From Bacillota bacterium (GTDB lineage: Bacteria > Bacillota > Halanaerobiia > Halanaerobiales > DATFIM01), in NCBI GenBank assembly GCA_051744825.1, contig JBNJDL010000001.1, forward strand, positions 1 to 60,475: DNA of 60,475 bases, given 5' to 3'. A program made the translations under genes and the position numbers. Below are positions 1 to 28,571 of the stretch, one piece after another. Numbering within the stretch: the first letter of the stretch is position 1; every line of letters starts with the position of its first letter. Under the pieces are notes generated by a model. It was not told where the DNA came from, did no database searches, and worked only from the letters and a program-made list of their open reading frames with translations.

Positions 1-84
1 ACAATTACAATCATTATGTTTAGCTACTTTTTCAGAATACATCATTTGGCATTTTCTACATATATAATAATTTTTATTACTCAT
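1..84 (-). CDS. Small Cys-rich protein, N-terminal part only (ORF runs off the left edge)
   Basis: ATG at 84..82 overlaps the stop of 77..442 (GATGAGTAA). Reads MSNKNYYICRKCQMMYSEKVAKHNDCNC with CxxC and CxC pairs. Truncated by the window. Confidence 0.35.
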   Translation of the reverse strand, partial: MSNKNYYICRKCQMMYSEKVAKHNDCNC

Positions 85-442
85 CTTCCCACCTCACAGT
101 TTTTTTAGAATTGCTTTTTATTTTCATAATAAATAGCTTAAATTTTATATAACTTATAAATCCTAATATCATTCCTTTATTGTCAAACATAATTATATCA
201 GCATGGACTTTACAAAAGTCTTCATATCTATTTTTATATCTAATATAACTACCATTAAATAATTCATCTTCATATTCTATCATATTATATTCTTCAAATT
301 TTTCTTTAAATTTATTAAAATTACTCCAGCCATATTTTTCTGTATTATTTCTAACCATTGAAATATGAGTTAACCAATCTAAAATAATAAGTATAATACT
401 AGCAGCAATTAAACTTACTAATAAAACTAACATCGCTTCCAT
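77..442 (-). CDS. Hypothetical protein with N-terminal transmembrane helix
   Basis: ORF in the packed minus-strand gene train. Hydrophobic N-terminus MEAMLVLLVSLIAASIILIILDW. Stop and start are shared with neighbours. Confidence 0.6.
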   Translation of the reverse strand: MEAMLVLLVSLIAASIILIILDWLTHISMVRNNTEKYGWSNFNKFKEKFEEYNMIEYEDELFNGSYIRYKNRYEDFCKVHADIIMFDNKGMILGFISYIKFKLFIMKIKSNSKKTVRWEDE

Positions 443-717
443 TATTCTACCTCCTCATATAATGATTGACTTCTTCTTAAATCGCCATATAAAATTATTC
501 TCATTTCATCATCTATATCACCACTATATTTTTCTAAAAAGTTAACATCTTTTGGGGTGAATTTATAATTCTTGAATAAATATTTCCAAGCAGCTAATTC
601 TGTTTCAAAGCTTTTTTCAACTAATAATCTTTTTTGTTGATAATCATAATCCCAATAAACAACACTAATATCATTTGGATAATTCCTTACATATAATTTA
701 TATGGACTCCTTCTCAT
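442..717 (-). CDS. Hypothetical protein
   Basis: ORF abuts its neighbours with no gap. No recognisable motif. Confidence 0.6.
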   Translation of the reverse strand: MRRSPYKLYVRNYPNDISVVYWDYDYQQKRLLVEKSFETELAAWKYLFKNYKFTPKDVNFLEKYSGDIDDEMRIILYGDLRRSQSLYEEVE

Positions 718-1038
718 TTATACCTCCTCCAGGATTATTTTAACTTTATTTCTATCACGATAATGCCATTTTATAATATGTCTCTGATTATTTAATTTAT
801 TAATTATAGTCTCAGATCTAATCCCAAAATAATCAGCTTCATACTCAAAAGCTTCATCAAATAATCTGTTCCCGCTTTCCAATCCTATTAACTTTAATTC
901 ATTACGGCCAGTTTGAACTAACATATAAGCTATTTCTGTTCTTTCCCCGTAACTATCTTCCATTTCAAGTATAAAAATGTCACCGGCGTTTACTAATTCA
1001 GGCTTATTATTAATTTTCAATTTATTTTTAACTATCAT
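718..1038 (-). CDS. Hypothetical protein
   Basis: ORF in the co-directional gene train, immediately followed by the next start. Confidence 0.6.
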   Translation of the reverse strand: MIVKNKLKINNKPELVNAGDIFILEMEDSYGERTEIAYMLVQTGRNELKLIGLESGNRLFDEAFEYEADYFGIRSETIINKLNNQRHIIKWHYRDRNKVKIILEEV

Positions 1039-1050
1039 TTTATCAGCTCC

Positions 1051-1563
1051 TTAATATATTTTTATAACACCTTTTAACTTCTCATCTTTCAATTCTTTAA
1101 ATTCAATATCAAACCTAAAATCATCTAACATAACTCGATAATCTTTTCTATTTGTAAATTCAATATTCTCAAAATATTTATATATTTCTTTACTTCCAAA
1201 ATTAAACATTTTTAAATACAACCAACCTATTTTATTAATAGATTTTATTGGTCTAAATAAACCATCTTTTTGTGTTATCCAAGCAACCTCATCTGGCATT
1301 TCATAAAATACATCTGAAAGCCACAATGAAAAGTTAGCTTCTATTTTTACTTTGGATTGTAACATCTGTATGTATTGTTCTGCTGCTAATTCTACATCTT
1401 CTTCAACAGTTTTTTCTGTCCCAACAAAAATATTGTATTTATCATATTCTATATCAGGCTCAAAGAATTGTGATTTATTTTTTCTAACTGCACCAACCAT
1501 ATCATCATCATATTCAAATATGCCATCATTTTTAAGTTTTTTAATCAGATCAGCTTTATTCAT
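1051..1563 (-). CDS. Hypothetical protein
   Basis: The track ORF 1051..1668 is trimmed to the ATG at 1563 (MNKADLIKKL). That ATG is preceded by GGGAGGG and overlaps the stop of 1556..1783. Confidence 0.55.
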   Translation of the reverse strand: MNKADLIKKLKNDGIFEYDDDMVGAVRKNKSQFFEPDIEYDKYNIFVGTEKTVEEDVELAAEQYIQMLQSKVKIEANFSLWLSDVFYEMPDEVAWITQKDGLFRPIKSINKIGWLYLKMFNFGSKEIYKYFENIEFTNRKDYRVMLDDFRFDIEFKELKDEKLKGVIKIY

Positions 1564-1783
1564 TATATCCCTCCCAAAAATTTCTTTCATTATATAATAT
1601 GTCATTCTCAATAAGCCACTGTTCTGCAACTTCTTTTGTGGCTTTACATAACGGAATATTATAATCAATCATTAAATCCCAGATTTTATTAGCTGGATAA
1701 AAGTCTGACATTATTTCTTCTTTATTGTTTTCAAGTATTTCTAAAATATAATCATCGCCTGAATTATACCATTCTTTTAACAT
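1556..1783 (-). CDS. Hypothetical protein
   Basis: ORF in the gene train, adjacent to the stop of 1784..2059. Confidence 0.55.
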   Translation of the reverse strand: MLKEWYNSGDDYILEILENNKEEIMSDFYPANKIWDLMIDYNIPLCKATKEVAEQWLIENDILYNERNFWEGYNE

Positions 1784-2059
1784 TTATATCACCCCTTGAA
1801 GTTTTAATTCCCCAATAACAAAATCAATCTGTTCATCAGCCATTTCTTTATATTCTATAAAGTCTCTTACAAATTTAAATTTATTATCATGCCAACCTAT
1901 TAAGATTCCAGTTTGAGTTAATTCAATTTCAACTTCAGTTCTATAATTAGGGATTTTCAATTCCCAATCATCAAAAAAGTCTTTAAAATTCATTCTTCTA
2001 ACATGGATAATTCTGCCTTCATCAGCACTCATTAATTTTATCTTTTCTTCTCTATTCAT
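1784..2059 (-). CDS. Hypothetical protein
   Basis: ORF in the gene train with an AGGGGTGAA-type RBS region upstream. Confidence 0.6.
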   Translation of the reverse strand: MNREEKIKLMSADEGRIIHVRRMNFKDFFDDWELKIPNYRTEVEIELTQTGILIGWHDNKFKFVRDFIEYKEMADEQIDFVIGELKLQGVI

Positions 2060-2074
2060 TTAATTCACCCCTTT

Positions 2075-2485
2075 TTAATATTCTTGAGTATTTAGATATT
2101 CAACAGCGGCTTCTCTTAATTCTTCTAATCTTTCACCATCAAACAGATCTTCATCAAATATTTCTAAATGAGTATAAAATTCATCTTCAGTAAAATCATA
2201 ATAATTTGCTTTATCAACTAAATCTTCATATTCTTGCCAATAGTCTTCAAGCCATTCTTGGTCTAAAGTTTCAGCTACTTCACTTCTTAAGAATCCTATT
2301 AAATATTCATAGCCATTATGAAGGAATTGTTCAACTCCTCCATTATAAACTTGGCTTGTAAATCTGCTAACAGCAAAAGCTAATTTATCATTAAAATTGA
2401 GCTTCAAAAATTCATCTCTTTCCCAACCTACTTTTTCATCTTCATCCATCTTTTTAAGCCAATCATTTAATTCTTTTATTTCCAT
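2075..2485 (-). CDS. DMP19/DUF4375-like protein (possible DNA-mimic family)
   Basis: Motif FTSQVYNGGVEQFLHNGY resembles the NGG..QF..N signature of the DMP19 family. The start is set at the ATG at 2485, after GAGGTGAATAAA; the track start GTG lies inside the RBS. Confidence 0.4.
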   Translation of the reverse strand: MEIKELNDWLKKMDEDEKVGWERDEFLKLNFNDKLAFAVSRFTSQVYNGGVEQFLHNGYEYLIGFLRSEVAETLDQEWLEDYWQEYEDLVDKANYYDFTEDEFYTHLEIFDEDLFDGERLEELREAAVEYLNTQEY

Positions 2486-2507
2486 TTTATTCACCTCTTT
2501 TGAGTTT

Positions 2508-2573
2508 TAGGCTATCTCATCAGTCCAAGGAGCCTATCCCTTGAAGACTGGGAAATGAATACCCAGTTTCGAA
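2508..2573 (-). ncRNA. Hammerhead ribozyme motif, stem II-open (type II) permutation, copy 1
   Basis: Minus strand: UUC-GAAAC-UGGG(9-nt loop)CCCA-GUC / UUCAAGG-GAUAGGCU-CCUUGGA-CUGAUGAG-AUAGCCUA. All core boxes are present in the correct order. Loop I UAGGCU is complementary to the 3' tail AGCCUA. It starts right after the stop codon of 2574..2942. Confidence 0.7.
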
Positions 2574-2942
2574 TTAAAGAATAAACATTGAGAAGTATTT
2601 TTTAGTAACATTATCTTTATTATAACTAAATCTTATCAATCTATTAGCCTCATATTGTATCACTTCTAATTCATCAACTTTTATTTCCATATTTATATAT
2701 CCTGGATTTCCGCCACCAATATTTGTTTGAATAAATAATTCAATAAATCCCGTTTTAGTAGCTCTCACATCTATATTACTTATTTTTGTATTTTCTATCA
2801 TACCTTTTCGCATTCTAGCTTCTGGTGATTGAAATTGAATGAAATCAATCTCTCTTTCTGAATAATCACTTAAGAATTCTTTAATAGACAACGCTAACTC
2901 TTCAGCTTCTTCAAAATGCTTAGTTATTAATCTTTTTTTCAT
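2574..2942 (-). CDS. Hypothetical protein
   Basis: ORF with ATG at 2942 after AAGGAGTGGATAAA. The stop TAA at 2576..2574 directly abuts the hammerhead motif. Confidence 0.6.
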   Translation of the reverse strand: MKKRLITKHFEEAEELALSIKEFLSDYSEREIDFIQFQSPEARMRKGMIENTKISNIDVRATKTGFIELFIQTNIGGGNPGYINMEIKVDELEVIQYEANRLIRFSYNKDNVTKKYFSMFIL

Positions 2943-2975
2943 TTTATCCACTCCTTTTGATTTTTGAAATTTATT

Positions 2976-3284
2976 TTAAAGTCTTTCAACTTTTGTATTT
3001 GACTTTACATAAATATCACTTTTATCAATTACAGTTATAACTTTTATTGTATTTTTTGAGAATCCAAATATTATGCTTACTTCATTATCTTCATCTATTA
3101 AAGCAACATCTTCTTCTTCATTTTGTAATTCTTGAATCTTATCTTTGCCTAAGCTCAATAAATCAGAAGCTACCAAATATTCATCTATATTTCTTTGAGC
3201 CATTCTTTCTAGACTATGTTTTGTAGCTCTTATTGAATACATCTCTTTATTAATTTTAAGTGTTGTTAGTGATTTAGATTTCAT
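2976..3284 (-). CDS. DUF4258-like small protein (putative toxin-fold family)
   Basis: KHSLERMAQRNIDE resembles the H..ER..eRgI motif of DUF4258. It is the first gene after an early promoter. Confidence 0.3.
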   Translation of the reverse strand: MKSKSLTTLKINKEMYSIRATKHSLERMAQRNIDEYLVASDLLSLGKDKIQELQNEEEDVALIDEDNEVSIIFGFSKNTIKVITVIDKSDIYVKSNTKVERL

Positions 3285-3332
3285 TTTTTGTGCCTCCCTT
3301 TTTTAGTGCCTCTTTTGTTACTCTCTAATTAT

Positions 3333-3361
3333 ATTATATCACGTCTGGAGCCATTTGTAAA
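3333..3361 (-). promoter_or_regulatory. Early sigma70-type promoter, family 1 copy 1 (TTTACA-N17-TATAAT)
   Basis: Minus strand: GGGGTTTACAAATGGCTCCAGACGTGATATAATATAATTAGAGAG. The spacing was counted as exactly 17 nt. An A/T-rich UP-like tract lies upstream and a conserved leader downstream. Confidence 0.75.
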
Positions 3362-3402
3362 CCCCTAAAAGCAAATTAATTCAATTATTTTTAAATTATT
3401 TT

Positions 3403-3466
3403 TTAGTCTGTCTCATCAGTGATAAGGGACTAATCTTATCAGACTGGGATCTCTCCCAGTTTCGAC
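3403..3466 (-). ncRNA. Hammerhead ribozyme motif, type II permutation, copy 2
   Basis: Minus strand: GUC-GAAAC-UGGGA-GAGA-UCCCA-GUC / UGAUAAG-AUUAGUCC-CUUAUCA-CUGAUGAG-ACAGACUAA. Loop I UUAGUC pairs with the tail GACUAA. It lies between the stop of 3479..3964 and promoter 3333..3361. Confidence 0.7.
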
Positions 3467-3478
3467 TCTATGTATTTT

Positions 3479-3964
3479 TTAGTTATTATCTATAACTGTA
3501 ATCTCATCAGCATATCTGCTAATTATTTCAAAAGAAGTTGAGATTAATTCTGCTTTTTCTCTTATTATATTTTCAGGAACTGTTCTTGGTCTTTGAGCAT
3601 TTCTTTTAAGTGAAGTTTGAAGACTGACTTGGACATAAACTACTTCTGTTGTATATCCAGCTGATTGAAGTTCTACAATTCTTTTCACCATTTTTTCTGA
3701 GTTTGTTCCTGTGCCATCTATTATCATATTTTTATCATTTGCTATTGCGTTATATCTTTTCTTATTAGCTTGCTTCTTAGACCATTCATGAATTGCTGCA
3801 GGATTCTCTGGGTCATATTCAGGGTGTTGTTGTTTTTCTAAGTCAGGGTCAACCATTACATATTCTTCAACTTCAGTTTCAAAATCTCTATTTAAGATGT
3901 AAGATTTGCCAGCTCCAGGAAGTCCCATTGTTAAAATTGCGTGCTTTTCATTTCTTTTAGTCAT
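3479..3964 (-). CDS. P-loop kinase (zeta-toxin / AAA_33-like nucleotide or polynucleotide kinase family)
   Basis: Walker A GLPGAGKS. IIDGTGTN segment. About 160 aa in size. Confidence 0.55.
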   Translation of the reverse strand: MTKRNEKHAILTMGLPGAGKSYILNRDFETEVEEYVMVDPDLEKQQHPEYDPENPAAIHEWSKKQANKKRYNAIANDKNMIIDGTGTNSEKMVKRIVELQSAGYTTEVVYVQVSLQTSLKRNAQRPRTVPENIIREKAELISTSFEIISRYADEITVIDNN

Positions 3965-4030
3965 TTTAAAATCTCTCCTTTTGAGTTTTTGAGAATTTTT
4001 TTAATGCCTCTTTTGTTACCTTCTAATTAT

Positions 4031-4059
4031 ATTATATCGCAAATGAAGGGGTTTGTAAA
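4031..4059 (-). promoter_or_regulatory. Early promoter, family 1 copy 2
   Basis: Minus strand: GGGTTTACAAACCCCTTCATTTGCGATATAATATAATTAGAAGG, giving TTTACA-N17-TATAAT. Confidence 0.75.
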
Positions 4060-4097
4060 CCCTTTTTTGCAAGTTTTTTAAGTTTTTTTCAATTATT

Positions 4098-5174
4098 TTA
4101 AAAATATTTCCCAAATTTTAAATCAAAATATTCTTTAGCTATTTCTGGATTATCAGCTTCAAATTTTTCTAAGTATCTCCAAGCTGCACCTTTTCTGCCA
4201 CTTTTTAGTATTCCACCTTTCTTTCTGCTATAATCTCTAAAAGTCATTTTAGTAAAAAAGCTTGGCTGATTACACCAACTCGCTAGATTTACATACATTC
4301 CGCGATATAAACTATCTTCGTATTTTTTGTATCTCATTATATAAGGAAGGCTTTTGTTTTCACCTAAAATCCTAATTCTTTCAAATGTATTTTTAATATC
4401 ATTTTTCCAAAATTCTTTATCATATTTTTTATTTTTATCAAAAGCTGTTAATACATAAAACCTTAATCTATTATTATTATATTTTCGCCATAATTTTAAT
4501 TTATTTTCTATAATTTCCCTATCTTCTATATTATCAAAAGCAAATATAAAATTGCCCCTACTTTTACTATTATTTAATAAATAAATTATCTCTTCATTTA
4601 TCAACCTAAAATCTAATCCTTGCTTAAATTCATAAGGTTTCCCAGTATCTATTATATTATTAAAAATTTCAACTCTATTTTTATATCCTAAAAAATTATC
4701 ATCTAAAAATACAAAATATTTATTTTTCTTATCATCAAATTCTTCAAGACTACTCCACCTTTCTACTTTAGTTTTATTTCTATTAACACAAAATTCACAT
4801 TGTCTAAAGCAAAATCTAGTCAAAAATCCTATCGAATGATTTTTATAATATTTTCCATCAACATCTATATTATTATATAAATTATAATCTGGTTTATAAT
4901 GTTCAATCTCATCAGCTAAAAAATCTTTTTTATCATAATTAAAACCAGTCCCACCATAAAATATATTTTTATTATTTTTAAAATCTATTGGGATATTAGT
5001 TTTAGTAAATACTTTTGATAAGAATATTTTATCATAATTATCTACCTTATCATAATCATCAATAAGTTTTATTTTATATCCTTTATTTTTATAATAATTG
5101 CTAATCTTCATTAAAGCTAAATTTGGGAATCTAGTTCCTTTATCTAATAAATCAGAATCTATTAATCCAATCAT
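4098..5174 (-). CDS. Radical SAM enzyme (CxxxCxxC), unknown substrate
   Basis: FCFRQCEFCVN carries the canonical CX3CX2C cluster motif. The N-terminal segment looks like a Rossmann or B12-binding-like region. Confidence 0.6.
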   Translation of the reverse strand: MIGLIDSDLLDKGTRFPNLALMKISNYYKNKGYKIKLIDDYDKVDNYDKIFLSKVFTKTNIPIDFKNNKNIFYGGTGFNYDKKDFLADEIEHYKPDYNLYNNIDVDGKYYKNHSIGFLTRFCFRQCEFCVNRNKTKVERWSSLEEFDDKKNKYFVFLDDNFLGYKNRVEIFNNIIDTGKPYEFKQGLDFRLINEEIIYLLNNSKSRGNFIFAFDNIEDREIIENKLKLWRKYNNNRLRFYVLTAFDKNKKYDKEFWKNDIKNTFERIRILGENKSLPYIMRYKKYEDSLYRGMYVNLASWCNQPSFFTKMTFRDYSRKKGGILKSGRKGAAWRYLEKFEADNPEIAKEYFDLKFGKYF

Positions 5175-5761
5175 GATTCATACCTCCTAATTAATTCTAC
5201 AACTTTTTTATAATAATTTTCATTACCTGTAAATGAATTATAGTTTTGTCCTTTATTATATCTTATTATACTTAGCAATCTATCCCCTTTGTTATTAAGC
5301 CAAGCTAAAAATGATATAATATATTTGGCTTGTAATTTATCTGAATTTATTATTTCATAATCAGGAACTTCTTTAAATCCATAAATCTTATTTAACATAT
5401 CAATAGTAGTTTTACGCATTGAAATCCAACCTAAACTTTTGCCTTGATCTAAGCTTTTATAATTTACAAATCTAGTTTCATGCAATACAATAAAAAATGC
5501 ATCTTTCCAAAGTCTATGCGGGTGAATATCTGTTTCAAATTTAGTAGAATAATATTTTAAATAAAATACCCTATCGCCAGCTTGTTTTTCATTCATATCT
5601 TTTATTCCATTCCATTCCGCGAATTCTTTATTATAGTCTTCAGCTATATTAATAAAATAATTTATTGTATTTCTATCTTCAGCTTCCACTATTGAATAAA
5701 ACAAAATTGAAATCAAAAATGTTGTTAATAAAATTAATATAAATATTTTTAATAGTTTCAT
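5171..5761 (-). CDS. Secreted or membrane-anchored protein, weakly lytic-transglycosylase-like
   Basis: N-terminal hydrophobic signal or anchor. HETRF...GKSLGWISM is only loosely similar to the SLT E-S...G-L-M-Q motif. Confidence 0.3.
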   Translation of the reverse strand: MKLLKIFILILLTTFLISILFYSIVEAEDRNTINYFINIAEDYNKEFAEWNGIKDMNEKQAGDRVFYLKYYSTKFETDIHPHRLWKDAFFIVLHETRFVNYKSLDQGKSLGWISMRKTTIDMLNKIYGFKEVPDYEIINSDKLQAKYIISFLAWLNNKGDRLLSIIRYNKGQNYNSFTGNENYYKKVVELIRRYES

Positions 5762-5772
5762 TTAATCACTCC

Positions 5773-6279
5773 TTAAAATTTATTAAACAAAATCAACGCC
5801 ATTACAGTTTCTACTGAAATAGGCTCATAATTTATTAATTCAACAGAAACACAAAAATGATTATTATCTTTCCATTTACTATTTTCATAAAACAATCCAT
5901 GAATATGACCATGGATATTAATTTGATTATTTTCAACTTCAATTGGTCTATGAGTAAATATTATATTTTTATCGTATTCATATTTATCAAATGCATCTTC
6001 AAATCCCATTCTATCTAAAAGTTTAGTTCTTGATTGTTGATCATGATTTCCTATTATTAAATATTTTTTACCATTCAACTGATTAAAAATTTCAAATTGT
6101 TTTTCAGTATTAGTCAAGGCAAAATCTCCTAAATGATAAACTATGTCATCTTCTTTAACTTTTTTATTCCAATTATGAATTAATTTTTTATCCATTTCAT
6201 CTGCGTTTTTAAATGGTCTATTTTCATATTTAATTATATTCTCATGACCAAAATGTGTATCAGCTATTAACCATTCCAT
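5773..6279 (-). CDS. Calcineurin-like metallophosphoesterase
   Basis: ADTHFGH, GDF, GNHD and HGHIH motifs occur in order. The start is set at MEWLIAD (ATG 6279) after AAAGGGGATGAAAAA. Confidence 0.75.
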   Translation of the reverse strand: MEWLIADTHFGHENIIKYENRPFKNADEMDKKLIHNWNKKVKEDDIVYHLGDFALTNTEKQFEIFNQLNGKKYLIIGNHDQQSRTKLLDRMGFEDAFDKYEYDKNIIFTHRPIEVENNQINIHGHIHGLFYENSKWKDNNHFCVSVELINYEPISVETVMALILFNKF

Positions 6280-6327
6280 TTTTTCATCCCCTTTATGTAT
6301 TACAAGGAGGAATTTCACCTCCTCATT

Positions 6328-7092
6328 TTAAGCTTCTTTTAATTGCTCTTTTAAATATTGTTTTGCTCCATCTAAAATTAAACTTATATATTGATGAGAT
6401 TTATCTAACTCTTCAGCTATTTCTTGAAGATTTTTCTGCTCAGTATCTATCCCATAATATTTATATATAATCTTTTTCTGTAATTCCGGAAGCTTTTTTA
6501 TTTCTTTGGTTAATTTATCAAACAATTCTCTTTGTCTTACATAATCAAAATGAGTTTTATTATCTTTTGATATTACATCACCAGCTAATTCTATTATATA
6601 ATCATAAGATACTATCTCAGAAAATGTTTGTTCAATTAAAAGACATTTATCATAACTCAAATCACTATTCTCAGATATTAATTTTGGAGTAATTTCTTTA
6701 TTATGCCTATCTTTTAATTCATTTTTAACAGCATTATATTTATTTAATTCTTCAAACATATTTTCTGGTATTTTTATTTTTGTATCCCTATATCTTATTA
6801 TAGAATGTTTTATCCAAAAACTAGCATAAGTTGAGAATTTTACATTTCTATCTGAATCAAATTTATCTATAGCTTTAACTAAACCTAAATATCCTTGCTG
6901 AATTAAATCTTCTAAATTATTATTTACATTATATTTTTGAGCTATGCTAATTGCCATACTCATGCATGATTTAATTAATTTATCTTTAGCTTCTTTATCA
7001 CCTTCTTGGGCTTTTTTAGCTAATTCTATTTGGTCTGATTTATTTAAATTATTATATTCTCCAGCTTGTTTTTTATATTCTAAAATATCCAT
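6328..7092 (-). CDS. RNA polymerase sigma factor, sigma-70 family (regions 2-4)
   Basis: Region 2: YLGLVKAIDKFD...FSTYASFWIKHSI. Region 4 HTH: LQEIAEELDKSHQYISLI. Confidence 0.8.
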   Translation of the reverse strand: MDILEYKKQAGEYNNLNKSDQIELAKKAQEGDKEAKDKLIKSCMSMAISIAQKYNVNNNLEDLIQQGYLGLVKAIDKFDSDRNVKFSTYASFWIKHSIIRYRDTKIKIPENMFEELNKYNAVKNELKDRHNKEITPKLISENSDLSYDKCLLIEQTFSEIVSYDYIIELAGDVISKDNKTHFDYVRQRELFDKLTKEIKKLPELQKKIIYKYYGIDTEQKNLQEIAEELDKSHQYISLILDGAKQYLKEQLKEA

Positions 7093-7119
7093 TATTTCAC
7101 CGCCTCTATCAGCATTTTA

Positions 7120-9384
7120 TTAACCACACTTAGACCAGCCACAATTTCTACAACTTGAACATCCACCTTCATGTTCTAACTTAAATCCACATTCTGGGCA
7201 TTTAGCTTCATCTTTTATTTCAACATCAGTTTTAACTTCTTTAGTTTTTTCTATAATATCAATTTCATCTGTGTGATTTATTTTTTCTTTTATTTCTTTT
7301 AATTTTAAAGCAATTGCTCCAGCGCAGCTTGCCCCTGGACTAACATCTTTTCCTTTACCTCTTGCAGCTTGATAAGCTGGGCAACTTCCTGCACTTAATA
7401 ATTGGTCAATTACATCATCTAATTTTATTCCACCTCTCAAAGATAATGAAATCAATCTTGATGTTGCTCTAGTGAATATCATACAACCTCCATTAGCTGA
7501 TTCAGTAAAAGTCTCAATAATATTATCATCATCATCAACAACAATTATAAGCCACATTGTGCCACAACCTGTGTCAAGTTTATATCTATAGCTTTTAGCT
7601 TTTTCTTGAGCGTCTCTAATTTCGCCTCTTTTAAGTTTATTATTTTTATTTGATTTTCCTTTTGTTTTTATATATGCTTCTGTATATGCCTCTATAAGTT
7701 TTTTATCTTCATTTTCATCTTCTTCATTTAAAACTTGGACTTGTCTGCTTCCATTCCTATAAATAGTTATTCCTTTTAATTGCCTCATAAATGCTTCTTT
7801 ATAAATAAAACTAACATCATCTTTAGTTGCATTTTCTGGGAGGTTAATTGTTTTAGATACTGCACTTCCAACATTTTTCTGCCAAGCAGCTTGCATTAAT
7901 AAATGGTCAATAGGATCAATATTTAAAGCTGTTCTTAAAGTATCTTTAGAAGCAACTTTAGTAAAATCATATTCTAATTGTGTTTTATTTCCATCCCCAT
8001 CAGTATGAGTATATTTTAAGCTAAAAAATGGCTCAATCCCATAACTAGTATTTGCTATTAAAGCTCTACTTCCCGTCGGAGCAACAGTTGTCAAAACTGC
8101 ATTTCTTCTAGGAGTTCTAATATCAGTATTATCAAAACCAGGAAATTCTCCTTTTTCTTCAGCTAGTTTTTCGCTATAATTAATAGCTGTATCATTAATG
8201 AATTCAGATAATTCTTCAGCTAAATCTCTTGCTTTTTTAGTATCATAAGGAATATCTAAATACATCAACATCTCATGAAATCCCATAACTCCAATCCCTA
8301 TTTTTCTATATTCTAAAGCTTTTTCTTCTAATTCTGGGAGTGGATAATCATTCATATCAATTACATCATCTAAAAACCTAACTGCATTTTCGACTATAGT
8401 TTCTAAATAATCCCAAGCAACTTCATAATTTATTGGCTTATTATCTACAAAATCAACAGCTCTTAACATATTAGCTAAATTAATTGCCCCTAAAATGCAT
8501 GATTCATAAGGAAGCAGAGGTTGCTCGCCGCATACATTTACTCCTTCAATTCTTTCATTAATTGGATGCTTTTCGTTTATTGTGTCTAAAAATATTAATC
8601 CTGGCTCTCCATTTTTATGAGCATATTCTACTATTAAATCAAACAATCCAACTGCGCTAACTGTGTCAACTACAGAATTATCTTTAGGACTTATTAAATC
8701 AAATTCTTCTTCATTCATAACTGCATCCATAAAATCATCAGTGATTCCAACTGAGATATTAAAATTAGTTAACTGTTTTTCAAGTAAAGTATTTTTTAAA
8801 ACTTCAGCTTCTTTTTTATTTAATTGAGATTTCATTGATTCATATATTTGTTTATTTTTATCATTAAGTTCACCTTTAGAAGTTACAAAATCAACTATAT
8901 CTGGATGATCTACTCTAAGAACTCCCATATTAGCGCCTTTTCTTCTTCCGCCTTGTTTTACAATATCAGTTGCTCTATCAAAAACTTTCATGAATGACAT
9001 CGGCCCACTTGAAACTCCATCAATATCGCCAACTCTTGCGCCTGATTCTCTTAATCTACTAAAAGCAAAACCAGTCCCACTCCCGGCTTTATTTACTAAA
9101 GCAAGTTCTTTTATAGCTTCAAATATTGAATCCATTGAGTCGTCTACTGGGAGAACATTGCAGGCTGACATATATTGTTCTTCAGTCCCTGCATTCATTA
9201 GACATGGACTATTAGGAATAAAATCCATATTAGTTAACATTGCTTCAAATTCTTCATACCATAAAACTGAATCAATTTCAGCTTCTGAAACAACATCAGC
9301 TACTCTTCTTGAAATATCTTGCCAATCTTCTTCTCCATCTAATAAGTATCTATCTTTTAAAAGTTGTTGAATTCTTTGCTCCAT
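7120..9384 (-). CDS. nrdJ: Ribonucleotide reductase, class II (adenosylcobalamin-dependent type) with C-terminal zinc ribbon
   Basis: NVCGEQPL active-site loop and TVAPTGS. C-terminal CPECG...CSSCRNCG. The start is set at MEQRIQQ (ATG 9384) after AGGAGG. Confidence 0.85.
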   Translation of the reverse strand: MEQRIQQLLKDRYLLDGEEDWQDISRRVADVVSEAEIDSVLWYEEFEAMLTNMDFIPNSPCLMNAGTEEQYMSACNVLPVDDSMDSIFEAIKELALVNKAGSGTGFAFSRLRESGARVGDIDGVSSGPMSFMKVFDRATDIVKQGGRRKGANMGVLRVDHPDIVDFVTSKGELNDKNKQIYESMKSQLNKKEAEVLKNTLLEKQLTNFNISVGITDDFMDAVMNEEEFDLISPKDNSVVDTVSAVGLFDLIVEYAHKNGEPGLIFLDTINEKHPINERIEGVNVCGEQPLLPYESCILGAINLANMLRAVDFVDNKPINYEVAWDYLETIVENAVRFLDDVIDMNDYPLPELEEKALEYRKIGIGVMGFHEMLMYLDIPYDTKKARDLAEELSEFINDTAINYSEKLAEEKGEFPGFDNTDIRTPRRNAVLTTVAPTGSRALIANTSYGIEPFFSLKYTHTDGDGNKTQLEYDFTKVASKDTLRTALNIDPIDHLLMQAAWQKNVGSAVSKTINLPENATKDDVSFIYKEAFMRQLKGITIYRNGSRQVQVLNEEDENEDKKLIEAYTEAYIKTKGKSNKNNKLKRGEIRDAQEKAKSYRYKLDTGCGTMWLIIVVDDDDNIIETFTESANGGCMIFTRATSRLISLSLRGGIKLDDVIDQLLSAGSCPAYQAARGKGKDVSPGASCAGAIALKLKEIKEKINHTDEIDIIEKTKEVKTDVEIKDEAKCPECGFKLEHEGGCSSCRNCGWSKCG

Positions 9385-9394
9385 TTTATACCTC

Positions 9395-9613
9395 CTATTT
9401 ATATTTATCTTCATTGAATATATTTTTTAAAGATTGTAATTTGTTGTTTATATAAATTACATATAAGATTACATAACTGAAACTAACTATAATAACTATT
9501 TTTGGCCCATAATAAATTCCATAGAATACTACAGTAAATCCTAAAACCGCTAACATCAACCAAAACATTATCCAACCTAATAATTCAAGAGGTTTAATCA
9601 GAATCACCCCCAT
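9395..9613 (-). CDS. Small two-helix membrane protein
   Basis: Two hydrophobic stretches (WIMFWLMLAVLGFTVVFYGIYYGPKIVIIVSFSYVILYVI). Confidence 0.5.
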   Translation of the reverse strand: MGVILIKPLELLGWIMFWLMLAVLGFTVVFYGIYYGPKIVIIVSFSYVILYVIYINNKLQSLKNIFNEDKYK

Positions 9614-10178
9614 TTATCATCTCAGGAAATGTAAGATTTTTATCTAAATAATTTCTAAAGTATTCCCATTCAACTAAACTAGAATGTTTTCTTTGAGAAT
9701 AAATAGTTTTCAACTGAAGATAATTAGTTGTAATTCTAGCTGTTAATTCCAATCCCATTGGAGAAGTTGCCATTATTTCTTGAAATATTGTTCTTTTGAC
9801 TTCTTTACTTTCAATGTCATTATAATCCTCAATTTTCTCTTCTAAAATATCAATTACTCTTTCATCAACAAAATCGCTGCATTGCTTTTTAATATCCATA
9901 TCTAATATTTTGTGCATTTTAGATTGACTTGAAATAATATCAGCAAAATGATAACGTCCAAATTGAAGCCACCAATATTGAGGAGCTGTAATATCAGCAT
10001 GAACTACAATTCCTTTTAAAGCACAATCATGACCACTCCCAATTGGAGCTTTAGCTAATTTTTCAAGTCTTTTATAATCTTTAGTTTCAACTATATTTTT
10101 TATCTCAGTTGATTTTGGATAACCGCTAGCAACTAAAGTTTCTTCAATATCATATTCCCTTAATTTATTTATTTTCAT
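9594..10178 (-). CDS. ThyX-like protein (FAD-dependent thymidylate synthase fold) with a divergent signature motif
   Basis: GHDCALKGIVVHADITAPQYWWLQFGRYHFADIISSQSKMH aligns by eye to the ThyX block ...QLvRHRiaSySqqSqRY. RYH replaces RHR. Confidence 0.45.
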   Translation of the reverse strand: MKINKLREYDIEETLVASGYPKSTEIKNIVETKDYKRLEKLAKAPIGSGHDCALKGIVVHADITAPQYWWLQFGRYHFADIISSQSKMHKILDMDIKKQCSDFVDERVIDILEEKIEDYNDIESKEVKRTIFQEIMATSPMGLELTARITTNYLQLKTIYSQRKHSSLVEWEYFRNYLDKNLTFPEMINGGDSD

Positions 10179-10179
10179 A

Positions 10180-10572
10180 TTAATTCCTCCATGCTATTTT
10201 ATAATTATTTTCTAAATACTTTTTATTAAAATTAAATTTTTGATTATCATCTGTTGTTGTTACATATTCTTCGTTATTTTCATATATTTCTAATATTTTT
10301 TTAGCATTAAATATTCCTTTTTTATTTTCTATAATATCGCCTTTTTTAAATTTAAAATCTTCAGCGGATAAATTATCTACAAAATCTTTAGCTTTCATTG
10401 CTGCCTCAGCTGGGCCTACTTCATTACATTCATATATTGTAGATTCGCTAACTATCTCTTTTACTATTGAATTCCACCCATACAACATATTTCTTAATAT
10501 TATTTTTTTATCTTTATATTCAAAAACTATTTCATAACAATCATCAAAAGGAATGTCAAAAGTTTTACTCAT
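10180..10572 (-). CDS. Hypothetical protein with FKxGD repeat (paralog group)
   Basis: The start is set at ATG 10572 (MSKTFDIP) after GGAGGG, overlapping the upstream stop. Contains FKKGDIIENKKG, which is shared with 10565..11152 and 11323..11691. Confidence 0.5.
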   Translation of the reverse strand: MSKTFDIPFDDCYEIVFEYKDKKIILRNMLYGWNSIVKEIVSESTIYECNEVGPAEAAMKAKDFVDNLSAEDFKFKKGDIIENKKGIFNAKKILEIYENNEEYVTTTDDNQKFNFNKKYLENNYKIAWRN

Positions 10573-11152
10573 CAGAATCCCTCCACAATAAATAATAATT
10601 ATCTTCAATATATGCTTTGTTATAATACAATTTATCTTTAAGTATTTCTGTGACTAAATAATGTTGCCTATCTTCATCATATTTTATAATTTTTTTATTA
10701 TTATATTCATCATCAGTTCCTATTATATCTCCAGCTTTAAATCTATTTTCTGCAATTATTTTTAGACTATTTTTACTAAACATATCATTCAAAAGATCAC
10801 CTTCAGAATCAATATAACTAACTGCATATCTATCCCCATAATAATCTTCTTCATCTGCTATCCCGAATATAGTTCCTTTATGATTATCATTAATTATAAC
10901 TTTGTCGCCGACTTTAAAACTTTCTGTTTTACAAATCTTTTCAATCATTTCTGGCCCCCAAGTCCAATCTTCATCACCCTCTAAATATATATATTCTTTA
11001 TCATAATCAATTTTTTCAACAGTCATTTTACTGCCTCTATATTTACCCATTAGTTTAGTGAAATAAATAGTATTTCCATATAGCTTTTCTTCAATTAAAT
11101 CATTTCTAATTATAACTTCATCACCAATTTCAAGTTCATCAATATTAATCAT
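10565..11152 (-). CDS. Hypothetical protein with three (L/F)x(I/V/A)GD(E/K/I)(V/I)I repeats
   Basis: LEIGDEVIIRND, FKVGDKVIINDN and FKAGDIIGTDD. The block YAVSYIDSEGDLL is shared with 11323..11691. Confidence 0.55.
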   Translation of the reverse strand: MINIDELEIGDEVIIRNDLIEEKLYGNTIYFTKLMGKYRGSKMTVEKIDYDKEYIYLEGDEDWTWGPEMIEKICKTESFKVGDKVIINDNHKGTIFGIADEEDYYGDRYAVSYIDSEGDLLNDMFSKNSLKIIAENRFKAGDIIGTDDEYNNKKIIKYDEDRQHYLVTEILKDKLYYNKAYIEDNYYLLWRDSDE

Positions 11153-11164
11153 TTTAGTTCCCCC

Positions 11165-11326
11165 TTAATTTTTTATGCCTCTTTCAAATCTTTTGCCTTC
11201 AAAATATTCTTTTTCATAATCACAGCCAGGAGTTTGACATCTTTCCAACTTCTCTCTCAGATAACCTCTATCATAATCTTCATAAACTAAAACCATTTTT
11301 GAGCCGCAATTTTTACAGTAACTCAT
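11165..11326 (-). CDS. Small zinc-ribbon protein (53 aa, below the ORF-track cutoff)
   Basis: ATGA overlap with the stop of 11323..11691. Sequence MSYCKNCGSKMV...CQTPGCDYEKEY has two Cys pairs. Confidence 0.45.
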   Translation of the reverse strand: MSYCKNCGSKMVLVYEDYDRGYLREKLERCQTPGCDYEKEYFEGKRFERGIKN

Positions 11327-11691
11327 TTTTCTTCTTCACTCCAAACTAAACTATAAATTCCACTTTCTACAAACTCTTTAGCATTTTTTAATTCTTCTCC
11401 GTGCTTAGTTTCCATAATGTATGAATTATCTACTATATCAGTTATTTTTCTATAAGGAAAATCAACATCTAAATACTTTAATATATCGCCTACTTTAAAT
11501 TTGAATTCTTTAACTTTTTCTAAATCTTCTTTTCTATATAATTCATAAACTAAATCACCTTCATAATCAATATAACTAACTAAAACATCATACCCGACAA
11601 AATCTTTTTTAGCCATTATACATTCAACAGTTGCTTTATCGCCACTTCTAATTATAACCTTATCCCCAACTTTTAAATTATCATTATTCAT
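11323..11691 (-). CDS. Hypothetical protein, FKVGD-repeat paralog
   Basis: LKVGDKVIIRSGD...VLVSYIDYEGDLV...FKVGDILKY. Confidence 0.55.
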   Translation of the reverse strand: MNNDNLKVGDKVIIRSGDKATVECIMAKKDFVGYDVLVSYIDYEGDLVYELYRKEDLEKVKEFKFKVGDILKYLDVDFPYRKITDIVDNSYIMETKHGEELKNAKEFVESGIYSLVWSEEEK

Positions 11692-11742
11692 TTTATCCCC
11701 TCCATATTTTTATTATAACATAAATAATTGACTTTGTAAAAT

Positions 11743-12132
11743 TTATTTTTCTTTAGGCCACCCAATTCTTTTACCTCCATTTTCATCAGTGCATTCTTGA
11801 GTATATAAGTATCCATCCAATTCAATTATTTTTTCTGTTAATCTCTCAGCTAATTTATAAATATCATTATACAATTTCATTCTCTTTTTATAGTCTTCAT
11901 AATAAGGTTGAGCCATCTCAGCTAATTGATATTCTTCTTTTTTAATCCTATCGAGTAATTTATAGTGTATATGTTTTAGATCGTTTAATTCTTCAAGTTC
12001 ATCTAACAATCCATATCTACCTAAGTGTGAATTACCATATTCTTTATCGCCTTCAGCCTCTCTTGCTTGTCTCCATTTTCTAAATTCTTTTTCTGACATA
12101 TCGCAAATTCTTTTAGGATTTTTAATTTTCAA
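11743..12132 (-). CDS. Hypothetical protein
   Basis: ORF in the gene train. The start is uncertain (TTG at 12132 close to a GGGGG tract). Confidence 0.45.
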   Translation of the reverse strand: MKIKNPKRICDMSEKEFRKWRQAREAEGDKEYGNSHLGRYGLLDELEELNDLKHIHYKLLDRIKKEEYQLAEMAQPYYEDYKKRMKLYNDIYKLAERLTEKIIELDGYLYTQECTDENGGKRIGWPKEK

Positions 12133-12263
12133 TACCCCCTACTTTTATATTAAAATATTCTATAACTAAAATTAATATAATCATAAAATCATTTAATGGC
12201 TTCATTATTAGTTTATAATACCAAGGCAAAAAGTCCGGAGAAGTATATAAAACTTTATCAATT

Positions 12264-12704
12264 TCATCCTCTAAAATGAACAGCTTCAACACCTCCGGCT
12301 TCTAAGAATTCTTTTTGATTATCATATTCATCAAAAGCTTCCATTCTATTATCATTATATTTATTGATATAAATTACTTTTTCAATTCCAGCTTGAATTA
12401 TAGCTTGACAACAATTAATACAAGGTTGATGAGTTACATAAAGAATAGCGCCTTTGGATTCTTTGCCAGCTTGGATTATCGCATTAATTTCAGCATGAAC
12501 TGCCCGATGACAATGATTATCTTCTCCAATTGCGCAACCAACATCAGTGCAGTGAGCCATATTTCTTGGAGCCCCATTATAACCAGTCCCTACTATATTA
12601 TTATTTTTAACTATCAAAGCCCCAACTGTGCCTCTTGGGCAGGTAGATCTTTCAGCTGCAGCTTTTACAATTTTTATAAAATACTCAGACCATGAAATCC
12701 TCAT
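12264..12704 (-). CDS. dCMP deaminase (cytidine/deoxycytidylate deaminase zinc-binding family)
   Basis: HAEINAI and PCINCCQAI zinc-ligand motifs with the spacing typical of dCMP deaminases. Confidence 0.85.
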   Translation of the reverse strand: MRISWSEYFIKIVKAAAERSTCPRGTVGALIVKNNNIVGTGYNGAPRNMAHCTDVGCAIGEDNHCHRAVHAEINAIIQAGKESKGAILYVTHQPCINCCQAIIQAGIEKVIYINKYNDNRMEAFDEYDNQKEFLEAGGVEAVHFRG

Positions 12705-13185
12705 ATAACTCCTCCTTTATTGATTTGATTTCCCTACTTATTGTTGATTGAGATAAATTTGTTTTATCAGCGATTTCAGATTGTGTATAATCATCTATTA
12801 ATAATTTCATAATTTCAAACTTCCTTTCATCTAATTCTTTTTTAAAATAATCTAAAGCTTCTAATTCATAATATGGATTCTCATTAGATTTTAAATATTT
12901 CATTTTATCATAACCATCTTCTTCTCTAGCTTCAACTTCACTCCAATCTATCTTAACAATATCATTTTTAGTTAACTTTTTAAGCCTATTCAATATAATT
13001 GTTTTTGCATAATTTGAAAAAGCTTTTACTGGGAAGTTTTCAAAATCAAATTTTATTGCAGCTAAAGTTAATCCATATAAAGCTTCTGAATATCTTTCCT
13101 GGTGATTAAGATTCTTAAATTTCTTACACAAAGATTTTGCTAACGGGATATATTTTATAATTAAAGTTTCCCTTCGTTCTTCCAC
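12685..13185 (-). CDS. Small sigma factor (ECF-like, regions 2 and 4 only)
   Basis: About 166 aa. Region 2-like: EALYGLTLAAIKFD. Region 4 HTH: YTQSEIADKTNLSQSTISREI. Confidence 0.6.
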   Translation of the reverse strand: MEERRETLIIKYIPLAKSLCKKFKNLNHQERYSEALYGLTLAAIKFDFENFPVKAFSNYAKTIILNRLKKLTKNDIVKIDWSEVEAREEDGYDKMKYLKSNENPYYELEALDYFKKELDERKFEIMKLLIDDYTQSEIADKTNLSQSTISREIKSIKEELYEDFMV

Positions 13186-13221
13186 ATAATCACTCCTTTT
13201 GAGTTTTGAGTTGATTAATTA

Positions 13222-13464
13222 TTATATTTTTCTTTTTTCATCTTCAACATTATCATTAGCTAAAGCTTCATTACAAGCAGACATTATATTTTTTAATCCA
13301 TCTCTATCAGTTTGAATTGCATTCTTTACAAAGAATTTTATTACTTGCCCATCCGATTCTGCAACAATCTGTTGAGCTACTGAGATTTTACCATCACTTC
13401 TTCTTGAGATAACTAAATTCCTATTTTCACCAATTTTAACTTTTGCTAATTCTTTAAATTTCAT
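13222..13464 (-). CDS. Hypothetical protein
   Basis: First ORF after family-2 element A, with RBS AGGGGGAATTAAA upstream. Confidence 0.55.
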   Translation of the reverse strand: MKFKELAKVKIGENRNLVISRRSDGKISVAQQIVAESDGQVIKFFVKNAIQTDRDGLKNIMSACNEALANDNVEDEKRKI

Positions 13465-13504
13465 TTTAATTCCCCCTGTTTTTTAGTTTATGTTATTTTA
13501 CAAA

Positions 13505-13605
13505 TATCGCATGAGAAGCCGTTCTGGCCACTTTTTATTATATGAGTATTATACTATTAATATTATAATTATCATAGCCTCATCGACCTCTCACACGCTG
13601 TGCAG
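13505..13605 (-). promoter_or_regulatory. Conserved roughly 100-nt intergenic element, family 2 copy A (function unknown; contains a TATAAT box)
   Basis: Minus strand: CUGCACAGCGUGUGAGAGGUCGAUGAGG-58 nt-GCUUCUCAUGCG. The same boxes with the same 58-nt spacing recur at 25241..25340 and 57798..57896. TAGTATAAT lies at 13556..13548. Confidence 0.5.
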
Positions 13606-13752
13606 CTATTTTACAATCTCTCTTATCTGTTCATAAGCCATAGCTTTTTCAGCCTTTTCTTGTGTAGCATTCACAATATCTTTTTTGCTATTCTTAGAAT
13701 ACTTATCTTCCATTTTATCAACAATAACTTTTATTTGTTCTAATTTATTCAT
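13606..13752 (-). CDS. Small hypothetical protein (48 aa)
   Basis: ATG 13752 overlaps the stop of 13745..14083 (AAAAATGAATAA). It ends at TAG 13608..13606, directly abutting element A. Confidence 0.4.
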   Translation of the reverse strand: MNKLEQIKVIVDKMEDKYSKNSKKDIVNATQEKAEKAMAYEQIREIVK

Positions 13753-14083
13753 TTTTTGCCACCTTAATTCTGACATTCTCTTCAATAATATTTGTTAGTT
13801 TATTTGTATCAAATGTTTTTGGATCACACTTGAATTCAAATTTAGCATTTCCATCTTTATAAATTTGCAGCTTCCAGAATATATTTCTAGGTATCTCAAT
13901 CAAAGCTTCTTCATCTAACTCTTCAAATATTTTAACTTCAAAAAAATCATCAACAACCATGACAGTTTGTATTACATTAGATATTTCAGAATATGGGGCC
14001 TCAAACCTTAACTTTAAATTCCCATCACTAAAAACATCACTTTTATCAAATACTGATTCAAACTCACAAATTTCTTTTGCCAT
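13745..14083 (-). CDS. Hypothetical protein
   Basis: ORF sharing its start/stop junction with 14083..14403. Confidence 0.6.
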   Translation of the reverse strand: MAKEICEFESVFDKSDVFSDGNLKLRFEAPYSEISNVIQTVMVVDDFFEVKIFEELDEEALIEIPRNIFWKLQIYKDGNAKFEFKCDPKTFDTNKLTNIIEENVRIKVAKNE

Positions 14084-14403
14084 TAATTATTACCCCCTAA
14101 TAATATTTTTACAGCTCTAGATAAAGCTAAGTATTTACCAAAGACTTCTATATTTAAGTCATCTTCACTAACCTTAGCTGTTGTATACAATTCAAATTCC
14201 CTAGTAGTTTTATTTTTCTTCCCCACTATGCAACAACTACTTCCGTTTATTGAACAATATAATTCTATTACTCTATAACCTCTTTTACCTAATTCAGCTT
14301 TTAATTCATTAATTTTACGTTCTGTTTTTTCAATTATAGCTTCAGCTACATTTATATCAGACAAAGCTAATTCTTCAGCATAACTAAGCTGATTTTTAGT
14401 CAT
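14083..14403 (-). CDS. Hypothetical protein
   Basis: ORF in the gene train. Confidence 0.6.
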   Translation of the reverse strand: MTKNQLSYAEELALSDINVAEAIIEKTERKINELKAELGKRGYRVIELYCSINGSSCCIVGKKNKTTREFELYTTAKVSEDDLNIEVFGKYLALSRAVKILLGGNN

Positions 14404-14405
14404 TA

Positions 14406-14696
14406 TTATTCCCCCTCCTTTTTGAGTTTTTCTAATTCTTGAGCTACTTCTAATAAATCAAATGGTCTAACCATTATCCAACTAAAATCACCAACAAAAT
14501 CAACAACAAAGAAAGGAAGTTTTTGATATTTTCTAGCATTAAATATTAAAGTCTTAAAGTCTTCTCTGTTCAACCTAGTAGTCTTCTTTTCTGTAGATTT
14601 TAATTGCATGAGTAATTTATCTGAAACACCATCTTCTTTATATAATACTGTATTTCCACTCCCTTTTTGAGGTTTCAATCCAAGGTTTCTGATCAA
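14406..14696 (-). CDS. Hypothetical protein, possibly PD-(D/E)XK-like; N-terminus uncertain
   Basis: The frame stays open upstream to 14747 with GGAGGG-N6-ATA but no ATG, GTG or TTG. The track start TTG 14696 has no spacing to AAGGAA. GSGN...D...QLK is only weakly nuclease-like. Confidence 0.4.
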   Translation of the reverse strand: MIRNLGLKPQKGSGNTVLYKEDGVSDKLLMQLKSTEKKTTRLNREDFKTLIFNARKYQKLPFFVVDFVGDFSWIMVRPFDLLEVAQELEKLKKEGE

Positions 14697-15822: not shown

Positions 15823-15851
15823 ATTATAACATGTTTCAGGGGATTTGTAAA
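15823..15851 (-). promoter_or_regulatory. Early promoter, family 1 copy 3
   Basis: Minus strand: GGGGTTTACAAATCCCCTGAAACATGTTATAATTAATATAGAAGG, giving TTTACA-N17-TATAAT. Confidence 0.7.
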
Positions 15852-15879: not shown

Positions 15880-15945
15880 TTAATCTATCTCATCAGAGTG
15901 AAGTGATTAATCTTCACTGACTGGGAACTTAATCCCAGTTTCGAA
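15880..15945 (-). ncRNA. Hammerhead ribozyme motif, type II permutation, copy 3
   Basis: Minus strand: UUC-GAAAC-UGGGA-UUAAGU-UCCCA-GUC / AGUGAAG-AUUAAUCA-CUUCACU-CUGAUGAG-AUAGAUUAA. Loop I UUAAUC pairs with the tail GAUUAA. It starts 3 nt after the stop of 15948..16190. Confidence 0.7.
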
Positions 15946-16571: not shown

Positions 16572-16600
16572 ATTATATCATGTATTGAGTAGTTTGTAAA
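16572..16600 (-). promoter_or_regulatory. Early promoter, family 1 copy 4
   Basis: Minus strand: GGGGTTTACAAACTACTCAATACATGATATAATATAATTAGAAGGTAAGAAAATAAGG. Confidence 0.75.
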
Positions 16601-27842: not shown

Positions 27843-27892
27843 TTTGTTCACTCCTTATTTTTTTATTCCTTATTTTCTTACCTTCTAATTAT

Positions 27893-27921
27893 ATTATATC
27901 ATGTTTTCTGCACTTTGTAAA
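27893..27921 (-). promoter_or_regulatory. Early promoter, family 1 copy 6 (leftward member of a divergent pair)
   Basis: Minus strand: GGGGTTTACAAAGTGCAGAAAACATGATATAATATAATTAGAAGGTAAGAAAATAAGG. Confidence 0.75.
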
Positions 27922-27996
27922 CCCCTAATTGAAAGTTTTTTAAGTTTTTTTAAAATAAATTTTTATAAAAAAAATAAAATTAATTGCTAAAAAAGG

Positions 27997-28025
27997 TTTA
28001 CAAACCTCCTGAAACACGATATAAT
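27997..28025 (+). promoter_or_regulatory. Early promoter, family 1 copy 7 (rightward member of the divergent pair)
   Basis: Plus strand: AGGTTTACAAACCTCCTGAAACACGATATAATATAATTAGAGAGTAAC, giving TTTACA-N17-TATAAT. Confidence 0.75.
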
Positions 28026-28075
28026 ATAATTAGAGAGTAACAAAAGGGACACTAAAAAAAAGAGGAGTGAATAAA

Positions 28076-28264: not shown

Positions 28265-28265
28265 T

Positions 28266-28556: not shown

Positions 28557-28571
28557 AGGAGGAGATTATAA

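Follow-up and report, generated by a model that had tools for sequence, protein, structure and literature searches.

A type II hammerhead ribozyme predicted to separate adjacent early RNAs in an uncultured tailed phage

Introduction

Bacteria and phages commonly carry type II hammerheads (Perreault et al., 2011, PMC3088659), and a 2019 review regarded the biological role of bacterial self-cleaving ribozymes as largely elusive (PMC6765202). Several of these hammerheads flank genes in prophages, and the flanked genes are not constant (PMC3088659). One proposal is that long phage transcripts are processed by hammerheads into mRNAs of gene or operon length (PMC3088659). The locus described here poses the same question at a single junction. 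What would a hammerhead do in the 3′ untranslated region of a phage kinase gene, just ahead of the promoter of the next genes? The element, HH-B, is the second of three copies in the window, the 60,475-nt stretch of DNA that was analysed. A first-pass annotation placed it between a stop codon and an early promoter and suggested that it trims read-through transcripts. The reading preferred here, with a probability of roughly 0.8, is that HH-B is a functional type II hammerhead that splits adjacent early RNAs without stopping transcription.

The Phage and the Locus

The window is from an uncultured tailed phage. It encodes a terminase, a portal protein, a tape-measure protein, a DnaE-like polymerase, RecA, a primase, a ribonucleotide reductase, and a sigma factor of the phage's own (6328..7092), and its G+C content is about 25-35%. 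All but one of the 42 ORFs of at least 150 aa lie on the minus strand, and the exception is nested in a longer minus-strand ORF. The nearest database phages have a polymerase that is only about 37% identical, and a megablast search of 2000..8000 against GenBank phages gave no match. HH-B is on the same strand as all adjoining genes. The features that surround it, and the further promoters of the same family, are as follows.

4031..4059, minus strand: early-type promoter P4059, TTTACA-17-TATAAT, positioned to transcribe the kinase gene and HH-B
3479..3964, minus strand: kinase gene upstream of HH-B, 161 aa, stop codon 3481..3479 (Zeta_toxin, E 1.9e-18; AAA_33, E 8e-13)
3333..3361, minus strand: early-type promoter P3361, TTAGGGGTTTACAAA ... 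TGaTATAAT
2976..3284, minus strand: first gene of the unit after HH-B, 102 aa, weak DUF4258 match below Pfam's cut-off
15823..15851, 16572..16600 and 27893..27921, minus strand: further promoters of the family
27997..28025, plus strand: plus-strand promoter of the family

The context given in the first-pass annotation is accurate. The upstream ORF, annotated there as a P-loop kinase, has the two matches listed, and HH-B lies between its stop codon and a promoter of the form TTTACA-17-TGnTATAAT at 3361..3333. The promoters are nearly identical and of the sigma-70 type. They share TTAGGGGTTTACAAA, a 17-nt spacing between hexamers, a (TG)nTATAAT element, a conserved leader ATAATTAGAAGGTAA, and A/T-rich tracts upstream. 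They are likely early promoters read by the host polymerase.

Architecture of HH-B

The minus-strand RNA of HH-B (3466..3403) reads 5′-GUC GAA ACUGGGA GAGA UCCCAGU C/UGAUAAG AUUAGUCC CUUAUCA CUGAUGA GAC A GACUAA-3′, where the slash marks the predicted cut. Its parts are listed in the order of the RNA.

3403..3466, minus strand: HH-B, complete type II hammerhead including the pseudoknot tail (from the sequence, RF02276 and covariance model R1)
3464..3466, minus strand: stem II 3′ strand GUC, with C11.1 at 3464; its partner GAC is at 3410..3412 (from the sequence and a descriptor scan)
3463..3461, minus strand: G12 A13 A14, read from the sequence
3443..3460, minus strand: stem III hairpin ACUGGGA-GAGA-UCCCAGU, 7 bp, with A15.1 at 3460 and U16.1 at 3443; 5′ strand 3460..3454, loop GAGA 3453..3450, 3′ strand 3449..3443
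3441..3442, minus strand: predicted scissile bond between C17 (3442) and U1.1 (3441), from the hammerhead consensus
3420..3441, minus strand: stem I hairpin, UGAUAAG (3441..3435) with CUUAUCA (3426..3420), 7 bp
3434..3427, minus strand: loop I, 8 nt, AUUAGUCC
3413..3419, minus strand: catalytic core strand C3-A9, CUGAUGA
3412..3410, minus strand: stem II 5′ strand GAC, followed by linker A3409
3403..3408, minus strand: 3′ tail GACUAA, forming a 6-bp pseudoknot with loop I UUAGUC (3433..3428)

All invariant positions of the hammerhead core are present, namely C3-A9, G12 A13 A14, the A15.1-U16.1 pair, and H17, which is C3442. The core nucleotides are likewise complete in copies 1 and 3. Read base by base, the core and stems I, II, and III agree in every element and coordinate with those first annotated. 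[quoted passage not shown] Along the minus strand, the order is the stem II 3′ strand, GAAA, hairpin III, UC, hairpin I, CUGAUGA, and the stem II 5′ strand. Stem II has 3 bp, with the G10.1-C11.1 pair at 3412/3464. The pseudoknot expected of a type II hammerhead joins loop I to the bases directly 3′ of stem II by 4 bp or more (PMC3088659); HH-B has 6 bp, and the duplex is computed at -6.1 kcal/mol. The cut is deduced from the hammerhead consensus, in which cleavage occurs 3′ of H17, and the predicted position coincides with the 3442/3441 bond proposed earlier.

Three Copies in the Window

The window holds exactly three hammerheads, all on the minus strand. Besides HH-B at 3403..3466, they are the following.

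2507..2573, minus strand: HH-A (copy 1), predicted cleavage between C2546 and U2545; RF02276 44.3 bits, R1 57.6 bits
15880..15945, minus strand: HH-C (copy 3), predicted cleavage between C15919 and A15918; R1 58.4 bits

A composite pattern, CGAAA-N-UC-N-CUGAUGAG, matches the window three times (minus strand, 2516..2571, 3412..3464, and 15889..15943), against 0.00 expected from 100 shuffles. A structural descriptor scan for core and stems returns the same three copies and one weak match within an ORF, compared with a mean of 0.17 in shuffled windows. That additional match (5637..5673) is attributed to chance, with stems of 4, 3, and 0 bp inside the ORF. Taken alone, CUGAUGAG occurs seven times in the window. 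The occurrence at 3510..3503 in the kinase ORF was examined as a possible piece of an alternative type I hammerhead and set aside, as no stem I is possible there and the sequence encodes Ala-Asp-Glu.

The copies differ from one another by compensation, and stem I and the pseudoknot also covary across relatives in IMG/VR. Stem I is UUCAAGG/CCUUGGA in HH-A, UGAUAAG/CUUAUCA in HH-B, and AGUGAAG/CUUCACU in HH-C. The pseudoknot is UAGGCU/AGCCUA, UUAGUC/GACUAA, and UUAAUC/GAUUAA, respectively.

Family Membership and Covariation

On the evidence of its sequence, HH-B is a genuine type II hammerhead of known architecture (RF02276, Hammerhead_II). In narrow scans of 84-91 nt, HH-B scores 40.3 bits over 3402..3467, covering model positions 1-66 of 66, and HH-A scores 44.3 bits at full length; the gathering score of RF02276 is 37 bits. 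HH-C is not reported by Rfam, including in its narrow scan. A whole-window Rfam scan at the gathering threshold gave no hammerheads and two tRNAs only, and a 261-nt scan at E <= 10 gave no hammerhead. Since the narrow-scan scores exceed the gathering score, these negatives are most likely filter losses on AT-rich sequence. HH-B has 42% G+C, compared with 55-65% in matched viral loci, and is much more AT-rich than the Rfam consensus, which most likely explains why default filtered scans miss it. AT-rich type II hammerheads are therefore probably under-annotated in low-GC phages, because a standard whole-sequence scan passed over copies that exceed the Rfam threshold. Other AT-rich structured RNAs in the window could have escaped the Rfam scans in the same way. 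The two phage tRNA genes, tRNA-Met (CAU) and tRNA-Thr (UGU), lie on the minus strand at 60222..60297 and 60306..60382.

Covariance model R1 was built from seven hammerheads, all from other phages, and was run with filters off. It scores HH-B at 70.6 bits (E 1.8e-16), HH-C at 58.4 bits, and HH-A at 57.6 bits. The next-best match in the 60 kb has 13.7 bits, which fixes the number of copies at three. Agreement with R1 in stem III is partly by construction because six of the seven training sequences were found by a pattern that fixes this stem.

Alignment A2 contains ten sequences of equal geometry, and 92.6% of its cells are paired, compared with 32-44% when the partners are slid. Stem I is paired in 100% of cells, with compensatory changes at all seven pairs, and helix 1 (stem II) is 90% paired. 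Stem III is nearly invariant in A2, as it was fixed by the search pattern. The pairing of loop I UUAGUC with the tail GACUAA, as first annotated, is confirmed. Both sides have changed in four of the six pseudoknot pairs, and a 6-bp Watson-Crick pseudoknot at the usual offset is reached by only 0.5% of shuffled tails for HH-B, and by 0.2% and 2% for the other two copies. Across 40 non-redundant type II hammerheads, the pseudoknot mostly begins at the fifth nucleotide after A9 (G10.1, N, N, A, helix), and it does so in all three window copies. The hammerhead pattern matches 27 loci in IMG/VR, several of which are recognised by RF02276. Among GTDB genomes, it gave a single match, in one Sumerlaeota MAG contig that is uninformative about the host.

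Placement Among Early Transcription Units

A conserved early-type promoter is found 0.58-0.78 kb upstream of each copy. In the first unit, P4059 is followed by the kinase gene and HH-B; in the second, P3361 is followed by two ORFs and HH-A; and in the third, P16600 is followed by two ORFs and HH-C. The genes that flank the hammerheads are small, mostly unannotated ORFs of an accessory type. HH-A starts directly after the stop codon 2576..2574, and 7 nt separate its end from the ribosome-binding site of the ORF with its ATG at 2484. HH-C starts 2 nt past the stop codon 15950..15948. Beyond HH-B and HH-C lies the next promoter, and beyond HH-A a ribosome-binding site. The pseudoknot tail of HH-B is 41 nt from the -35 hexamer of P3361, and that of HH-C is 28 nt from the -35 hexamer of P15851. 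A hammerhead is found upstream of two of at least five early promoters, and P4059, P16600, and P27921 have none upstream. The ORF directly downstream of HH-A (2075..2484, minus strand) has a weak match to DMP19-like DNA-mimic proteins (E 2.5e-4, below Pfam's cut-off). The DNA-mimic gene ardA lies directly downstream of hammerheads in Legionella (PMC3088659).

No terminator-like site was found at the three hammerhead junctions, the terminator scan lists none in 3300-3480, and none was found between P4059 and HH-B. Canonical terminators occur elsewhere in the phage, at 28785..28802 (plus strand) and 28982..28961 (minus strand), at a module boundary near 28.8-29.0 kb. The idea that hammerheads stand in for missing terminators was rejected because the phage has canonical ones. 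These two terminators belong to a divergent control region (27850..29010). There, the plus-strand promoter is followed by three small ORFs (about 28076..28715), the only clear plus-strand genes in the window, and by the plus-strand terminator. The minus-strand terminator closes the structural module.

A Model for RNA Separation Without Termination

In the preferred model, RNA polymerase coming from P4059 or from further upstream would read through the kinase gene into HH-B. The RNA would fold during transcription, and its tail would pair with loop I. This pseudoknot would take the place of a long stem II and hold stems I and II parallel, allowing fast cleavage at physiological Mg2+. The RNA would then cut itself between C3442 and U3441. 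As a result, the kinase mRNA would end in the stem III hairpin with a 2′,3′-cyclic phosphate, and read-through RNA across P3361 would begin with a 5′-OH and the stem I hairpin. The cleavage products should part quickly because stem II has only 3 bp. The net effect would be that adjacent early units become separate RNAs while transcription continues. Cleavage of HH-B, together with any effect on RNA stability or expression, is a prediction from sequence.

The earlier suggestion that HH-B trims read-through transcripts is reasonable and matches the proposal for phage hammerheads (PMC3088659). However, the role is better described as separation without termination than as trimming, since cleavage leaves the polymerase running and separates RNAs rather than ending the unit. 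The window is a clean case in that each of three ribozymes closes a unit of one or two genes, headed by a highly conserved promoter of the host type. With promoter-gene-ribozyme units at these loci and ordinary terminators elsewhere, RNA separation without termination is directly testable, provided that the phage or a reporter construct can be obtained.

Alternative Roles

A different product of the same cleavage may be the one under selection. It is possible, though on the doubtful side, that the selected function belongs to the downstream fragment, whose 5′-OH and stem I hairpin would alter its stability or translation. This reading overlaps with the preferred one and differs only in which product matters. 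Relatives in IMG/VR speak for it: in 42 of 45, a ribosome-binding site and start codon follow the hammerhead within 30 nt, and the same is true of HH-A. The family role may thus concern the 5′ end of the downstream RNA as much as the 3′ end of the upstream one. A 153-kb viral sequence, L018 (IMGVR_UViG_2541047117_000001), points the same way. At 4090..4216, a TTGACA-17-TATAAT promoter lies just upstream of a hammerhead, so cleavage there could do little other than give the primary transcript a new 5′ end. However, HH-B and HH-C precede a strong promoter, and the next start codon is about 120 nt past the pseudoknot tail, so most of the downstream mRNA need not carry a ribozyme-made end. For this family, a position directly ahead of a promoter is unusual but not unique, as another L018 hammerhead (2119..2189) is followed by a TTGACA-17-TATAAT promoter (region 2119..2260). 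An IMG/VR search for the hammerhead core combined with the window promoter gave one match (L028), inside a coding region and attributed to chance. In a further viral sequence, L027 (IMGVR_UViG_3300033551_000003, 1..14610), a stretch of 14.6 kb contains about 17 type II hammerheads. With few exceptions, they stop 0-6 nt short of an AGGAG ribosome-binding site, so that nearly all genes there have a ribozyme in front of them.

It is improbable that the copies are active or decaying passengers, duplicated or acquired with small cassettes of accessory genes and lacking a selected role. The flanking ORFs are of the accessory type described above, and the genes flanked by hammerheads are not constant in the survey of Perreault et al. 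(PMC3088659). The only close relative found also fits such a history. This 15.4-kb sequence, L030 (Ga0207421_10004788), has a DNA polymerase that is 69% identical and syntenic RecA- and RuvC-size genes. It contains no hammerhead in its 15.4 kb, syntenic region included, even with filters off, and its corresponding intergenic regions are without the promoter motif of the window. Among 19 metagenome loci with relatives of the DNA polymerase, no hammerhead was found with default filters. The absence from L030 indicates that the element is not fixed in the design of this phage lineage, that such elements come and go, and that their function is dispensable or replaceable. Against the passenger reading, every core nucleotide is kept in three copies, and stem I and the pseudoknot change by compensation, which is a signature of selection for the fold rather than of decay.

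A conditional switch is very unlikely. In such a scheme, HH-B would be gated by a hairpin between CUUAUC and GAUGAG or by ribosomes that terminate just upstream. The nested minimum-free-energy fold of HH-B (-22.4 kcal/mol) does pair CUUAUC, from the 3′ strand of stem I, with GAUGAG in the core and retains the stem III hairpin. Such pairing would leave the ribozyme inactive. For the active nested fold, the computed value is -18.2 kcal/mol, plus about -6 for the pseudoknot. In HH-A and HH-C, the stop codon is 0-2 nt before the first stem II pair, a distance that falls within the footprint of a terminating ribosome. However, the alternative hairpin is not conserved: HH-C folds directly into stems I and III, and the alternative fold of HH-A is weak (z = -1.1). 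Co-transcriptional folding should also favour the active form because stem I is transcribed before the core.

Equally improbable is a role for the three ribozymes in a phage RNA-end system rather than as simple cutters. If they had such a role, the RNA from HH-B (5′-OH at 3441) to HH-A (2′,3′-cyclic phosphate at 2546) would span about 0.9 kb. Its ends would suit RtcB-type ligation or religation catalysed by the hammerhead, and it could circularise. The P-loop kinase and a calcineurin-like metallophosphoesterase could then heal or re-mark the ends made by the hammerheads. Circular or spliced products were sought in the systems of Perreault et al., and none were found (PMC3088659). The metallophosphoesterase is encoded at 5773..6318 (minus strand), 2 kb from the kinase gene. 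Together, the two proteins resemble the kinase/phosphatase modules of RNA end healing, whose substrates are ends of the hammerhead type. The kinase also matches PHROG 505, 'polynucleotide kinase' (E 1.4e-11), and is equally similar to zeta toxin and PSTK. Its assignment as a dedicated polynucleotide kinase was set aside, as nothing goes past a family-level resemblance. The kinase protein had no match in IMG/VR or by exact-product look-up, and the scanned proteins include no ligase.

The probability that HH-B is a chance match or the hairpin of an intrinsic terminator is negligible. The genome is AT-rich, CUGAUGAG occurs seven times, and the stem III hairpin contains GC, but the full pattern is expected zero times, the R1 match has the E value given above, and stem III is followed by UCUGAUAAG rather than by the U-run of an intrinsic terminator.

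Comparison With Known Systems

HH-B is closest to the type II hammerheads of RF02276 and Perreault et al. In that class, stem II can be as short as 1-2 bp and loop I pairs with a 3′ tail just past stem II (PMC3088659). The core of HH-B is identical, stems I and III end in loops, stem II is open and of 2-3 bp, and a 6-bp pseudoknot follows directly after stem II. This pairing is important for activity in the known examples, in which shortening a 6-bp pseudoknot lowered the cleavage rate by 20- to >100-fold (PMC3088659). The setting is also similar, with intergenic placement in phage DNA and several copies flanking small blocks of genes. Unlike the usual type II hammerhead, HH-B is followed by a promoter and not by a ribosome-binding site. 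L027 and L018 share with the window the architecture and the stem III sequence CUGGG/CCCAG. However, they are unrelated phages without detectable DNA similarity beyond the ribozyme, and nearly all of their copies lie directly before a ribosome-binding site.

Desulfovibrio vulgaris has three type II hammerheads near phage-like genes (PMC8782182). Their cleavage was observed in vivo by cyPhyRNA-seq and in vitro (PMC8782182), whereas cleavage by the window copies is predicted. The two sets are alike in their Rfam family, in their position near phage-like genes, and in having two copies close together.

A functional parallel is provided by phage T7. There, RNase III cuts the long early transcript of the host polymerase between genes, which separates the RNAs without termination and leaves them with 3′ hairpin ends. 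At the T7 sites, a protein enzyme of the host cleaves within a double-stranded stem and produces a 5′-phosphate and a 3′-OH. These sites and HH-B have no sequence or structural relationship, and the analogy is one of function. Whereas the T7 RNA is cut by a host enzyme, HH-B would cut itself, leaving a 5′-OH and a 2′,3′-cyclic phosphate.
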